Positions 2,716 to 39,524 of a DNA stretch of 64,000 nucleotides are shown one piece after another. The stretch's first letter is position 1. Every line of letters starts with the position of its first letter. The DNA is from Candidatus Limnocylindrales bacterium (lineage in GTDB: Bacteria; Chloroflexota; Limnocylindria; Limnocylindrales; CSP1-4), in NCBI GenBank assembly GCA_051306295.1, contig JBPPMZ010000069.1:17998-81997 (forward strand). The letters are read 5' to 3'. Position numbers and translations under genes: made by a program. The notes beneath the pieces are model-generated. The model saw only the letters and a program-made list of their open reading frames with translations, was not told the DNA's origin and made no database searches.

Positions 2716-2865
2716 GGGCACGCACTCCAATGGCTCGGGGGAAGCGGAGTATACGACGCCGTTGTTTCCGGCTGAGGCCTGGCGTCCTGTGCCGCGGTCC
2801 GAGCGGATCGCACGCCTCCGAGGGGCAGTACGCTGGCGCACCCTGCCGTTCGGATCGATGCCTCG

Positions 2866-4209
2866 ATGACCGCTGTCCCGCCCTCCTCGCGACGTTCGCG
2901 ACCGGCCGCCTGGCTGGATCGCTGGGGTGGCATCCTGCCGCTCCTGGTCGCCGAGTTCGTCGTGTGGCTGGGGTTCGGCGGCCTGCTGCCGGTCCTGCCC
3001 CTGTACTTCACCGAGCAGGGCATCGACCTCGCGACGCTCGGCGTCGTCATCGCGGCCTGGCCGGCTGCCCGACTCGTCAGCGAACCGATCTTCGGCTGGT
3101 TGGCGGATCGCACGGCGCGCGTGCCGCTGATGGTCGTGGGGCTGGTGGTGACCGGCCTTGCCGGCGCCCTCCCGCTCGTCTTCATCGGCCCGACGGCGTT
3201 CATCCTGCTGCGAGCGATCTCCGGGCTGGGTGCCGCCATCTACGATCCGGCGGCCCGCGGCTTCCTGACCGATGCCACGCCCCCGGAGCGCCGCGGCGAA
3301 GCGTTCGGCCTGTACGGCGCGGCGCAGATGGGCGGGCTGCTGCTCGGCCCCACGATCGGGGCGTTCGGGGCCGGGCAGTTCGGTGGCATCGGCTTCGTCT
3401 TCGTGTTCAGTGCGGTCACCTCGGTCATCGCGGCGGCGGGCATCGCGCTCCGGGTGCGCGAGGAGGTCGTCGAACGGCGCGCCCACCGGACGCCGTCGCC
3501 TGACCGTACGGAGTTCCCACCCGATGCCCCGTTCCTCGAGGAGCGCTGGGCGCGCGATCTGGCCGCGGATACTGCTCGGACCGCGGGCGTCGGTCAGGCC
3601 GGGACCGCGGCGGCGCCGATGCGGTTGCTCAATCGGGGCCTCGTCGCGGCTCTCGTGCTGAACATGGGCGGCTACTTCGGGAGTGGCACGTACGAGGTCA
3701 TCTGGAGCCTGTTCCTGGAGCGCCTCGGGGCGGATCTCGCGCTCATCGGTCTGACCTTCGCGATGTTCGGGTTGCCGGTGCTGCTCTTCTCACCCTTCGC
3801 CGGGCGGATCGTCGATCGGCGCGGGCCGTTCGCCTTCGTGGTGCTGGGGACCGTGCTGCCGGCGATCACCGGGATCGTCTACACCTTCCTCGTGGATCCC
3901 GTGCTGGCGGTGCCGCTGATCCTGGTGGAGGCGACCGGGTTCGCCCTGCTCAACCCGGCCCTCTACGCGATCGTCGCCGCGAACTCACCGCCGGGTCGAT
4001 CGTCCACGGCGCAGGGCATCTACGGTGCGGCCGGGACGCTCGGGTTCATCGCCGCGTCGCTGGTGTCGGGCGTGCTGGCCGCCCAGGACATCCGCTACCC
4101 GTTCTACCTGTTCAGTGCCGTGATGATCACGAGTCTGGTCATCGGCATCGCCATCGGTGGCGATCGGTTGCGCATCCGGCCACGCTCGCTGGCAGCAAGC
4201 GATCCTTGA
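2866..4209 (+). CDS. MFS transporter
   Basis: 447 aa, 12-TM pattern, ATG 2866. Long central loop. Confidence 0.85.
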
Positions 4210-12943: not shown

Positions 12944-13274
12944 GCAGGGTCCTCAACGGTTCGGTCGGGGCACACACCCGGACCAGGCGCGGGTCAAGAA
13001 CGGGTAGCGGTCCGGCCCACGGGGGTCGGACGGCGCCATGATACCCGGAGCGTGGGCCGCTCGCGTGGTCCTGCGTTGTGGCTCGGTGGGAGCAGGCCAG
13101 GGGCGCGCGACCGGCGATGTTCCCCCCAGTACCGCATCCGCGATAGACACCTCGTGGAATCGCGACGAAACGACGACGCCGTGTCGATCCTGCAAGGGAC
13201 CACGCACGTTCGTTCAGGATCCGGTACTGGCCGCACCGCCGAGGCGCGGGATCGGTTCGTGCGACGATGCGGGC

Positions 13275-15852: not shown

Positions 15853-15867
15853 CAGCCCGACGGCCCT

Positions 15868-15990
15868 GCGTTCCTGCCAGTACCCGGATCGCGATGAACG
15901 TGCGTGGTCCCGCGCAGGATCGACAGGTTCCTGTCAGTTGGTGATCGGTCCACACGGGACTCGTAGCGAATCCGGTACTCAGGGGAACGC
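15868..15990. repeat. X-family element copy 1: 123 bp with about 20-bp imperfect terminal inverted repeats (GCGTTCCTGCCAGTACCCGG ... CCGGTACTCAGGGGAACGC). Internal sequence diverged from copies 2 and 3.
   Basis: Shares both termini and length with 37823-37945. Lies 3' of the YHS gene. Confidence 0.6.
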
Positions 15991-16236
15991 AGGCCGTCTG
16001 GGCCGCCCACCCGGCCTGGCGCGCGATCCGCGATAAGTCGCAGCTAAGCGGTCATGAGGACACTGCGCATCCGCGCTGGTGATCGGGCACTCCTTGGTGG
16101 GATCGCATCGGCGCCCCAGGCCGGCCAGATGCCGGCGGAGGTACTCGACGTGCGTGCCCGGATCCTCGCCTCGGCCATGGCCGTCCTCCCCGTCCTCGTC
16201 GCCTTCTTCGAGTTCGGTCGGCGATGGCACTGAGCC

Positions 16237-37034: not shown

Positions 37035-37796
37035 ATGACCGACCTTCGAACGCGCATCCGCGCCGGCGAGACCCTCATCGGATCGTTCGCCGATCTCGCT
37101 TCGCCGCTGGCCGCGGAGCTCCTGGGCCAGGCCGGCTTCGATTGGACCGTCCTCGACCTGGAGCATGGCGAATCGACGGAAGCTGACCTCCTGGCGATGC
37201 TGTATGCCGTCGGAACGACGCCTATGACGGCCGTCGTCCGTGTGCCGTCCGCCGAGCGGCTGCGGGTCGGGCGCGCCCTGGATCTGGGCGCCGCCGGGAT
37301 CATGTTGCCGCAGCTCCAATCCATCGAAGGTGTTCGCGAGGCCGTGTCGTACCTGCGCTACCCACCAGTCGGCCAGCGCGGGGTGGCGTTGCGGACCCGA
37401 GGCGGCGGGATGGGTTCGCTGGGGCATCCTGACGTGGCCCGGGTCGTCAACGAGCGCATCGTGGGTATCGTCCAGATCGAATCGGCCGGGACGGTCGCCG
37501 ATGCTGACGCCATCGCGGCGCTCGACGAAGTGGACGTGCTTTTCGTGGGGCCGGCGGACCTTTCGCACAACCTTGGCGTCCCCGGCCGGTTCGACGACCC
37601 GACGTACCTCGCGGCGCTACGGACCGTGCTCGACGCGTGCTCGAACCATGGCAAGGCGGCCGGCATCCTCATCTACGACGCGGCCGTGCTGGCCCGCCAC
37701 CTCGATCTCGGGTTCCGGTTCATCGGTCTCGGCTCGGAGGGCTCGTACGTGAGTGCCGGGGCGCGGGCCATGCTGGCGGCGGCTGGCCGCACCTGA
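37035..37796 (+). CDS. HpcH/HpaI aldolase / citrate lyase beta-like
   Basis: PF03328-like TIM barrel motifs (LDLEHG, VVRVP, QIES). Confidence 0.8.
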   Translation: MTDLRTRIRAGETLIGSFADLASPLAAELLGQAGFDWTVLDLEHGESTEADLLAMLYAVGTTPMTAVVRVPSAERLRVGRALDLGAAGIMLPQLQSIEGVREAVSYLRYPPVGQRGVALRTRGGGMGSLGHPDVARVVNERIVGIVQIESAGTVADADAIAALDEVDVLFVGPADLSHNLGVPGRFDDPTYLAALRTVLDACSNHGKAAGILIYDAAVLARHLDLGFRFIGLGSEGSYVSAGARAMLAAAGRT

Positions 37797-37822
37797 TCAG
37801 GAGTCGCGGCCGCCGCCCGCCT

Positions 37823-37945
37823 GCGTTCCTCTGAGTACCGGAATCGCGACGAACCCTTCGTGGATCGCCGACCAAACGACACGATCCTTTCGATCCTGCG
37901 TCGCACCGTGCACGTTCATACGGATCTCGGTACTCACCGGAACGT
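37823..37945. repeat. X-family element copy 2 (123 bp, TIRs GCGTTCCTCTGAGTACCGG ... CCGGTACTCACCGGAACG)
   Basis: Near-identical to copy 3. Distinct flanks on both sides. Confidence 0.7.
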
Positions 37946-38121
37946 GGCGGGTCACCACTAGGCCGCCGATCGCCGGGCGGCGTCCGCGTAGTCGGCATAA
38001 CGGGCCGGCGACCGGCGCCCATCGAGCCGGCTCCGGATGAGCCACTCACGACCGCGGCTCGATGGGTCGATCAACGCCATCCCGCGACCCGCCGCCGGCG
38101 AAATCCCACCCGGCATCAGCG

Positions 38122-38757
38122 TCAGGCCATCTCGCGTGCCCGAACCGGAAAGGCAGTGTTCAAGTACGGCCGGTTGGCCCACAGCACTCGCTCGACCTCG
38201 TCACTGGCCAAGACGAGCAGCCAGGTCTGGACTCGCCGTGGCTCCCAGCCGAGCTCTCGTGCGCGGTCCCAGGCCGCCCGCTCATACCAGCCGAGTTGGC
38301 GCTCCACGGCGCCGAGATCATCGAGCCGCGTCTTGACCTCGATTACAAGAAGCGTCCGGGTCCTGGGGTCGAAGGCCAGCAGGTCGATCCAACCGTGCGA
38401 CCGACCGTGGACGATCTCGATCTCGCGCGCCGCGTCCCACCCCTGGCTGCGCAATCGACGCTCGACATAGGCCGAACATCGAGCGTGGACGGCATCGCGC
38501 ACCCGCGGCCCGCCGATGATGGTCGGGCGGCGGATCGCCAGGTCGACCTCGAGACCGAGGGCCTGGGCGATCGCTTCTACGCGACGTATCGATGGATTCG
38601 CATCGCCGCGCTCGACCCTGGCGATATAGCTCCGGGTGACCCCCGCCCGATCGGCGACGGCCTGCTGCGTCAGGTCCAACGCCAGGCGCGTGTCGAGGCA
38701 GGCCCGGGCGAATGTCGTCCGGACCGGCTGCCGTGCGGGGCCGGTACTCGATGTCAT
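38122..38757 (-). CDS. XRE-family HTH domain fused to a PD-(D/E)xK nuclease-fold domain
   Basis: From ATG at 38757: HTH TQQAVADRAGVTRSYIARVERG. C-terminal core GWIDLLAFD ... LLVIEVK (Asp, then Glu-x-Lys). The 288-aa track ORF over-extends into the repeat. Confidence 0.6.
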   Translation of the reverse strand: MTSSTGPARQPVRTTFARACLDTRLALDLTQQAVADRAGVTRSYIARVERGDANPSIRRVEAIAQALGLEVDLAIRRPTIIGGPRVRDAVHARCSAYVERRLRSQGWDAAREIEIVHGRSHGWIDLLAFDPRTRTLLVIEVKTRLDDLGAVERQLGWYERAAWDRARELGWEPRRVQTWLLVLASDEVERVLWANRPYLNTAFPVRAREMA

Positions 38758-38837
38758 GCGGACATTGGAGCAGAGGGCCCTTACCCCGGACTTACCCGGG
38801 GCTCTTCCGGCCCGTCGCCGTTCCACCGCGCGCCCGG

Positions 38838-38958
38838 TGTGCCCCTGAGTACCGGAATCGCGACGAACCCTTCGTGGATCGCCGACCAAACGACACGATC
38901 CTGCCGATCCTGCGTCGCACCGTGCACGTTCATACGGATCTCGGTACTCACCGGAACG
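38838..38958. repeat. X-family element copy 3 (about 121 bp), direct orientation relative to copy 2
   Basis: Differs from copy 2 by about 3 substitutions internally. 5' outer TIR partly degenerate (GTGCCCCT vs GCGTTCCT). Confidence 0.7.
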
Positions 38959-39023
38959 TTGGCCACCCTGACCATCGGGAGCCCCCACGTCACCGAGCGC
39001 GACGACGGACTACACTTCGCGAC

Positions 39024-39524
39024 GTGACCGACCTCACCGAACGTGCGGTCGCCCGTCGCGTCCCATCGCTGACCGACGAGCGCCTCCGTGTCCTCAGCCG
39101 TCGCCAGCCTGTGACCGTCCCATCGGGCACGACGCTGGCCGACTGCGTTCGCGCCATCCAGCGGTCCGGCACCGGCGATTCCGTGTTCGTGTGCGACCCG
39201 GAGGACCGCCTCCTGGGCGTCCTCACAGAACGTGACATCTTCAGCCGCATCGTCGGTGGGACCGTGGACCTGACCCAGCCGGTCGAGAACTTGATGACGA
39301 CCGAGCCGCGCACCCTGGACCTCGACCAGACGATCCGCGACGCCATCGAGCTCATGCAGACCGGCCGATATCGCAACGTCCCCGTCGTCGACGAGCATGG
39401 CCACCTTGCCGGGGTCGTGCGCCAATCCGACATCATCAGGTACCTGGCCGAGTCGTTCCCCGAAGAGCTGCTCAACCTCCCACCGAGGCCACACCAGCGC
39501 ATGAAGGAGCCAGAAGGGGCGTGA
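39024..39524 (+). CDS. CBS-pair domain protein
   Basis: GTG start. Two CBS motifs. GTGA-coupled to korA. Confidence 0.7.
   Translation: MTDLTERAVARRVPSLTDERLRVLSRRQPVTVPSGTTLADCVRAIQRSGTGDSVFVCDPEDRLLGVLTERDIFSRIVGGTVDLTQPVENLMTTEPRTLDLDQTIRDAIELMQTGRYRNVPVVDEHGHLAGVVRQSDIIRYLAESFPEELLNLPPRPHQRMKEPEGA

Follow-up and report, generated by a model that had tools for sequence, protein, structure and literature searches.

What are two near-identical short repeats doing on either side of a single gene? The question was raised by a 64-kb stretch of DNA (the window) from a metagenome-assembled genome (MAG) of Candidatus Limnocylindrales, a lineage of freshwater and soil Chloroflexota that is abundant but uncultured. 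Here a 123-bp sequence occurs in direct orientation at both ends of a gene encoding a protein with an XRE-type helix-turn-helix (HTH) domain and a predicted PD-(D/E)XK nuclease domain, referred to below as the HTH-nuclease. A first-pass annotation had proposed a pair of MITEs (miniature inverted-repeat transposable elements), a composite-transposon-like unit, or paired recombination sites around a cargo gene. We analysed these 64 kb of the genome together with up to 21 kb from each of its relatives, which are identified by L numbers. Our analysis confirms the repeat and assigns it to a new family of dispersed elements. Our tentative preference is for a reading in which the HTH-nuclease recognises the neighbouring 123-bp unit as its cognate DNA site and may also copy or move it. 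The strongest support comes from the linkage of the repeat to the gene, the ten-turn spacing within it, boxes that are specific to each lineage, and the copying of the exact box-to-box unit.

A repeat search of the window returned a single family of direct repeats, pairing 37820-37945 with 38834-38959 (126 nt, 95% identity), and within these segments lie the two 123-bp copies, A and B (Table 1). Their sole differences across 37831-37946 and 38845-38960 are two adjacent bases (TT/GC near 37890), and three more fall within the first 9 nt (GCGTTCCTC in A, GTGTGCCCC in B). This gives five differences in 123 nt, where about three substitutions had been counted before. The ends do form imperfect inverted repeats, as previously described, with arms of 31 nt and 74% complementarity (37824-37854 and 37914-37944). 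Similarity between the copies ends abruptly at either edge, and their end motifs (a 24-mer and a 30-mer) each occur exactly twice in the window, with none expected in shuffled sequence. The alignment supports the earlier view of A and B as discrete units, with no longer segmental duplication around them.

Each unit is built from two 15-bp boxes (17 bp with the flanking C/G) of the form G[G/T]WMC-N5-G[G/T]WMC, whose degree of dyad symmetry varies between copies. The boxes start 104 bp apart in 18 of the 19 copies and 106 bp apart in the remaining one; 104 bp is approximately ten turns of B-DNA, and the spacing persists even in copies whose interiors can no longer be aligned. All 11 copies from the window, L006, L017, L012 and L013 are exactly 123 nt long, with no insertions or deletions at 72-83% identity, whereas the intergenic DNA around them is unalignable. 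Distant lineages carry the same two-box architecture just upstream of the orthologous gene. The box sequence is lineage-specific, and the left and right boxes change together between lineages (Table 1). In several copies one box is a perfect 15-bp palindrome, the right box in L003, L067 and L069 and the left box in L005. Within the 11-21-kb loci of the distant relatives we found box pairs only beside the gene, where about 0.03 strict boxes would be expected per 20 kb.

In the window copy A lies 26 nt past the stop codon of an aldolase gene and 12 nt past the true stop of the HTH-nuclease gene. Copy B occupies the divergent spacer between the HTH-nuclease gene (start at 38757) and a CBS-domain gene (GTG at 39024), with its proximal box 82 nt upstream of the HTH-nuclease start. 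This arrangement recurs. A box pair is present on the 5' side of the gene in nine of nine lineages (window copy B, L006, L017, L012, L067, L003, L005, L072 and L074), and five of them have repeats on both sides (window, L006, L017, L067 and L074). The second element lies 11-16 nt past the stop codon in the window, L017, L067 and L074 and overlaps it by 12 nt in L006; an 18-nt remnant of the 3' element remains in L012. L074 is decisive for the linkage of gene and repeat. Its genomic context is different, with an aminotransferase gene, an HTH_17 gene and a kdp operon, and the gene is still bracketed, here by a variant of the element specific to L074 whose two copies are inverted and 74% identical to each other, the 3' copy lying 11 nt past the stop codon.

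Apart from L074, the gene is found at the same locus in the relatives, as vertical inheritance would predict. Relatives with a 61-65% identical protein carry it in the same slot on megabase-scale contigs, with an HpcH/HpaI aldolase gene convergent at its 3' end and EamA followed by the divergent CBS-korAB operon on its 5' side. L072 (69% identity) has the same slot, and the order aldolase, gene, (EamA), CBS-korAB extends across the window, L002-L005, L067 and L072. The closer relatives L006, L017 and L067 (~70-88% protein identity) lack EamA and have the element-gene-element layout of the window.

The conserved slot bears directly on the proposals that treat the gene as cargo, either between the ends of a composite transposon or between integron-like cassette sites. 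Two imperfect palindromes of ~123 bp that bracket one gene in direct orientation do recall Vibrio-type cassette arrays, where the repeats of Vibrio cholerae measure 123-126 bp. The presence of the bracketed module in two genomic contexts also means that it has moved, or that its surroundings were rearranged, at least once. We nevertheless consider a cargo arrangement extremely unlikely. Orthologues 61-69% identical to the protein occupy the same slot, including in relatives with the 5' element only, closer relatives keep the element-gene-element layout, and the 72-83% identity of orthologous A and B copies between genomes shows them to be old. An integrase, an array and cassette-type core sites are all missing from the window. 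The core sites of attC have the form RYYYAAC...GTTRRRY, and a by-eye check found the ends here, 5'-GTTCC...GGAAC-3', to be the reverse of this. The integron reading was ruled out by the lack of an integrase in the window, the syntenic gene and the opposite polarity of the end motifs. More probably, the repeats have the gene as a functional partner and do not carry it as cargo.

The layout also informs the age of the pair. Since element, gene and element keep their order in the closer relatives, A and B are orthologous across lineages that differ by ~20% in nucleotide sequence, and both are therefore old. The two copies within a genome are 96% identical in the window, 83% in L017 and 74% in L006. 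Given the lower identity of orthologous copies between genomes and the conserved layout, the near-identity of A and B would be better explained by recent homogenisation than by recent insertion, and gene conversion or re-copying could each have produced it.

Table 1. Copies of the 123-bp element, their boxes and the HTH-nuclease gene in the window, with box sequences from four relatives
Feature	Position in window	Strand	Details
Copy A	37823..37945	+	123 bp; found by alignment, repeat search and profile match
Copy A, left box	37825-37839		GTTCC-TCTGA-GTACC
Copy A, right box	37929-37943		GGTAC-TCACC-GGAAC
HTH-nuclease gene (XRE-HTH + PD-(D/E)XK)	37958..38757	-	Frameshifted after ...RAREMA
Copy B	38837..38959	+	96% identical to copy A
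Copy B, left box	38839-38853		GTGCC-CCTGA-GTACC
Copy B, right box	38943-38957		
Copy C	13117..13239	+	nhmmer 13118-13232, E 8e-17; 67% identical to copy A
Copy C, boxes	13119-13133; 13223-13237		Right box degenerate
Copy D	15868..15990	-	nhmmer 15869-15990, E 5e-25; 75% identical to copy A; inverted orientation
Copy D, boxes	15870-15884; 15974-15988		
L003, boxes			GTTCCTGGCAGGAAC and GTTCCCATCAGGAAC
L005, boxes			GGAACCGCCAGTTCC and GGAACTGCCAGTTCC
L072, boxes			GTTCC…GGAAC
L074, boxes			GTTCC…GGCAC

What kind of protein accompanies the repeat? Exactly one gene had been placed between the copies, at 38122-38757. There is indeed a single gene, present in one copy in the window, and that open reading frame (ORF) is only its 5' part, encoding residues 1-211. 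Homologues extend ~55 residues further at the C-terminus than the 211-residue product, and the window still encodes their conserved tail (…GRGMALIDPSSRGREWLIRSRLDGRRSPARYADYADAARRSAA, then the stop), though out of frame with the rest, with the conserved C-terminal 53 residues at 37958-38119. The frameshift zone, 38119-38124, is out of line with all homologues. A Logan contig carries the identical frameshifted sequence and possibly derives from the same data, and the frameshift reflects either gene decay in the clade or, for the window, an assembly error. The lineage of L007-L016 has independently lost the same C-terminal region through a deletion that runs from the gene into the equivalent of copy A, of which the first 18 nt are left.

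The N-terminal domain belongs to the XRE / Cro-C1 family (HTH_3, PF01381; E 2.5e-15, 56.7 bits against a Pfam cut-off of 23) and is structurally closest to C.AhdI and C.BclI. For the nuclease domain the Pfam matches were below threshold, and all of them were to PD-(D/E)XK families (PDDEXK_10, UPF0102, NucS_C and MmcB-like). The AlphaFold model of P0002, a full-length homologue with 88% identity, has a mean predicted local distance difference test (pLDDT) score of 87.5 and places strands at 108-117, 120-130 and 135-142 ahead of a helix at 148-168. The protein has the alpha-beta-beta-beta-alpha-beta core and the D...(D/E)xK motif of the PD-(D/E)XK superfamily, and D125, E140, K142, Q154 and Y158 are invariant across 52 homologues. 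The predicted nuclease active site, D...ExK...QxxxY, thus looks intact. A search of 1.84 billion representatives puts the family at a modest 239 clusters (50% identity, E <= 1e-30), with no curated family for the protein besides the HTH. It is likely that the HTH-nuclease binds the boxes. In L005, where the half-sites are swapped, the recognition helix of the protein (P0091) starts with S-A-R-Y, against [S/T]-R-S-Y in the others, a weak hint that protein and box may co-vary.

The proposed binding to the boxes raises the question of whether regulation might be the only function. The unit would then be a pair of looping operators through which the protein represses its own gene, and perhaps the genes beside more distant copies, with the nuclease fold serving oligomerisation or ligand sensing; unspecific duplication or recombination would have produced the extra copies. 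In every lineage the start codon has dyad-symmetric boxes 50-82 nt upstream of it, and their spacing is an integral number of helical turns. Known looping operators have comparable spacings, ~113 bp for gal OE-OI and 92 bp for lac O1-O3. The closest matches of the HTH are autoregulatory controller proteins, whose C-boxes in restriction-modification systems likewise lie upstream of the regulator gene, and the distant lineages have the 5' copy only, with no solo copies in the loci covered. Against this, what the copies have in common starts and ends with the boxes, a pattern that unspecific duplication does not predict. The second copy sits directly 3' of the gene in five lineages, in both orientations, and the unit recurs as a discrete 123-bp element at unlinked loci, where the copies are gained or lost between close relatives. 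Unlike the known operator systems, the protein has a nuclease domain whose catalytic D, ExK and QxxxY residues are invariant, and it has no adjacent methyltransferase or restriction operon. A purely regulatory module therefore seems to us rather unlikely. Should it be true all the same, the locus would offer a clear case of an operator pair that has spread as a discrete unit.

The unlinked copies were located with an nhmmer profile built from nine copies and run on the window and on L021, an unrelated Chloroflexota MAG. The search revealed two further copies in the window, C and D (Table 1), and in L021 a partial, decayed solo copy at an unrelated locus (E 6e-13). Copy C lies between coxII (-) and ctaG (+), and copy D starts 16 nt past the stop codon of a YHS-domain gene. 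We looked for copy-number variation in relatives and found it at both sites, since no element is present at the C site in L076 and L078 or at the D site in L075, L077 and L078. The genes that flank these sites in four relatives have 73-80% nucleotide identity (68% over one block). Between the YHS stop codon and a conserved motif the window has ~173 extra nt, against ~9 nt in L078 and ~12 nt in L075, and the coxII-ctaG spacer, 146 nt long in L078, measures 332 nt in the window. Both loci are insertion polymorphisms with occupied and empty orthologous sites, and the family is dispersed and MITE-like, with a copy number that varies at defined sites. The exact box-to-box unit is found both 3' of the gene and at unlinked polymorphic sites. 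If the boxes are binding sites of the HTH domain, it would follow that a process able to recognise them copies or moves the unit from time to time.

Copy number also varies locally. The L007-L016 lineage has two tandem upstream copies in the spacer between the CBS and HTH-nuclease genes, 151 nt apart from start to start (141-263 and 292-414 in L012; 28-150 and 179-301 in L013).

Could C and D, and the pair around the gene, be ordinary MITEs, moved in trans by a conventional transposase encoded elsewhere? The adjacency to the gene would then reflect an insertion preference or old inherited insertions. The first-pass suggestion of a MITE pair was right in that the family is dispersed, has ends like terminal inverted repeats and includes copies absent from relatives; it missed the gene as the most likely functional partner of the repeats. 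The element is short, non-coding and multi-copy. A size of ~120 bp, imperfect inverted ends, intergenic sites, both orientations, presence or absence between relatives and the potential to form a long imperfect hairpin are all shared with MITEs and with the Correia/CREE, RUP and ERIC/IRU repeats, and the part of the genome inspected amounts to 64 kb. No transposase, integrase or recombinase domain was found by Pfam in the 40 largest ORFs of the window supported by third-position GC content (GC3), in agreement with the first-pass annotation. There was also no autonomous parent with the same ends and a transposase in the window or the relatives' loci, and no target-site duplication is visible in flanks that are too diverged to define the junctions. 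A distant blastn comparison of the element with 72,556 plasmids gave no match. Scans of genome and metagenome contig collections with the pattern AAACGACNNGNTCNNNNCGATCCTGC gave 22 and 27 matches, nearly all by chance, with the L021 copy as the sole real, partial one. Also against an ordinary MITE, the element is linked to the same gene in nine lineages, including the non-syntenic L074 with elements on both sides. Here at least one copy is obligately linked to one host gene across lineages. The boxes diverge with the lineage of the gene as their spacing stays fixed at 104 bp, and orthologous copies are far better conserved than the intergenic DNA nearby. We therefore regard this explanation as decidedly unlikely.

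A structured RNA would account for some of the same features. The unit might encode a small RNA, act as a cis-regulatory leader, or serve at the 3' end as a stabiliser or terminator, with the inverted ends forming a closing stem. The plus strand folds with -54.3 kcal/mol (z = -4.3 against shuffles), and A and D lie directly 3' of genes. Across the 19-copy alignment the outer helices formed by the boxes are 90-92% paired, with nine of 13 pairs changed on both sides. Where the boxes are themselves palindromic (L003, L005, L067 and L069), complementarity between left and right is automatic, so that this pairing cannot separate a hairpin from paired protein sites; the palindromes themselves point to the latter. 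The element had no Rfam match at the gathering threshold or at E <= 10, and among close copies RNAalifold returned a positive, that is penalising, covariation term on both strands. The element does not keep one orientation towards its neighbouring gene, with the L074 copies inverted and D inverted relative to A-C, and the likely promoters of the two genes beside copy B both lie downstream of it. For these reasons we favour an element that acts at the level of DNA, as a putative protein-bound site, and consider an RNA very unlikely.

How might the putative protein-bound site and its gene work together? HTH dimers would bind each box, and the occupied pair, which shares one face of the helix, would be brought together. 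Occupancy of the boxes upstream of the gene would lead to autoregulation. The gene and its flanking elements would form an old module that is mostly inherited vertically, and the solo copies (C, D and the decayed L021 copy) would result from occasional copying or moving of the box-bounded unit to new intergenic sites. The agent would most likely be the nuclease domain of the same protein, and it is plausible that this domain mobilises the element. Type IIE/IIF restriction endonucleases and TnsA share the PD-(D/E)XK fold and act on two synapsed DNA sites. They offer an analogy, by fold alone, for the cutting of a box pair; unlike them the HTH-nuclease has no methyltransferase or TnsB-like partner nearby.

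A bolder version of this reading is possible, if doubtful. The HTH-nuclease may be an unrecognised, domesticated single-copy mobilising enzyme that binds the boxes, synapses them over ten turns and cuts or copies the unit into intergenic sites, which would give Limnocylindria a counterpart of REPIN-RAYT that is independent and works by a different mechanism. Persistent, vertically inherited partnerships between repeat and enzyme are so far known essentially from that system, that is from one enzyme class. It consists of a single-copy, mostly vertically inherited enzyme gene flanked by its presumed substrate repeats, which diverge with the lineage of the gene (bioRxiv 10.1101/2021.07.10.451892; PMC3116915). 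As in REPIN-RAYT of Gammaproteobacteria, the repeats in the window are short (~100 bp), palindromic, extragenic and non-autonomous, and they flank a single-copy enzyme gene. In contrast, the enzyme combines XRE-HTH and PD-(D/E)XK domains where RAYT is an HUH/Y1 (IS200-like) transposase, and the 15-bp boxes 104 bp apart differ from repetitive extragenic palindromic (REP) sequences, which are 20-40-nt hairpins with GTAG/CGTC tags. Copies are few here, and the loci of distant relatives have none except beside the gene. With its different enzyme class, the double-box system would be an analogue of REPIN-RAYT and not a member. If this is true, a restriction-endonuclease-fold protein with an XRE domain would be the second case, and would show that such a lifestyle evolved more than once. 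The system would also be compact and open to experiment, with ~266 residues of protein and a 123-bp site whose two boxes keep a fixed spacing.

Several observations weigh against the HTH-nuclease as the agent that binds and moves the unit. Dispersal is modest, with four copies in 64 kb, while the ~70 kb of flanking DNA covered in four distant lineages contained no solo copy, and a REPIN-like population is hypothetical. The two lineages closest to the window have a damaged gene, through the frameshift and through the C-terminal deletion of L007-L016. An active mobilising enzyme may therefore be absent where solo copies occur, unless the protein can do without its tail or an assembly error accounts for the frameshift. 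The PD-(D/E)XK domains of regulators are sometimes non-catalytic, although the conserved active site argues otherwise here. Joint change of the two boxes is equally expected of a conserved hairpin, and both binding and mobilisation by the protein are inferred. No direct repeat indicative of a target-site duplication is evident at the ends of A-D, whose flanks are too diverged from the empty sites for the junctions to be identified.

The surroundings of copies C and D have further features. The flanks of D (15853-15867 and 15991-16010) extend its palindrome with CAGCCCGACGGCC and GGCCGTCTGGGCCG, and their duplex has -43.5 kcal/mol against -24.8 kcal/mol for shuffles. We considered insertion into pre-existing hairpins and rejected it; flank complementarity of this kind is found only at D and is weak at A, and the hairpin is missing at the empty sites of L078 and L075. 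We also rejected C and D as an inverted pair around cargo, the genes between them being ordinary ones (ctaG, threonine dehydratase, a DksA-like gene and the YHS-domain gene). At the exact site of copy D, L076 and L077 carry a 1.3-kb insertion (2762-3432 and 846-2107), which in L077 contains a PadR-family gene and a gene for a 246-residue protein. The YHS-permease spacer looks like an insertion hot spot.

A TAAG-N7-TAAG motif lies between copy B and the HTH-nuclease start codon (38780-38794, - strand), followed after 10 nt by the -10-like sequence TCCAAT, and is probably the promoter region of the gene. Other lineages keep variants of it ahead of the gene. The motif occurs exactly twice in the window, the second time near copy D (16034-16048, + strand), where a -10-like hexamer, GACACT, lies 10 nt on. 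Both sites are ~43 nt from an element copy and face the same element end, and the D-site motif, GATAAGTCGCAGCTAAGCG, is kept in relatives without the element. Among the relatives, L003, L067, L072, L075, L077 and L078 have the motif. It may represent a type of promoter common to the HTH-nuclease gene and a small unannotated gene at ~16054, or a target cue. A scan of 37700-39100 for consensus promoters and terminators found nothing. A leaderless start seems likely for the CBS-domain gene upstream of korAB, with the hexamer TACACT followed after 7 nt by its start codon, GTG 39024, in a sequence conserved in relatives (GACGGACTACACTTCGCG, 39011-39026). In L067 and L012 the HTH-nuclease gene has a comparable layout, with TGAACT or TCAACT 6-7 nt ahead of the ATG.

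Conservation of the repeat reaches beyond the boxes. Its interior (37863-37927 and the equivalent in B) contains four GATC sites and, in the consensus, a tandem 9-mer, GATCCTGTC GATCCTGCG, and TCGATCCTGC is invariant across nine aligned copies from close relatives. Such conservation might mark another protein site, or a place where the DNA bends. The length of 123 nt, 41 x 3, suggested a possible coding element, which we rejected; there is no third-position bias (entropy 0.37/0.49/0.52 by phase), stop codons occur in several frames and a start codon is lacking. Four-frame translations matched nothing at E <= 1 in a database of 5.8 billion proteins. Gene callers nevertheless report spurious ORFs over the repeats, for example a 116-aa ORF across copy B in contig L001.

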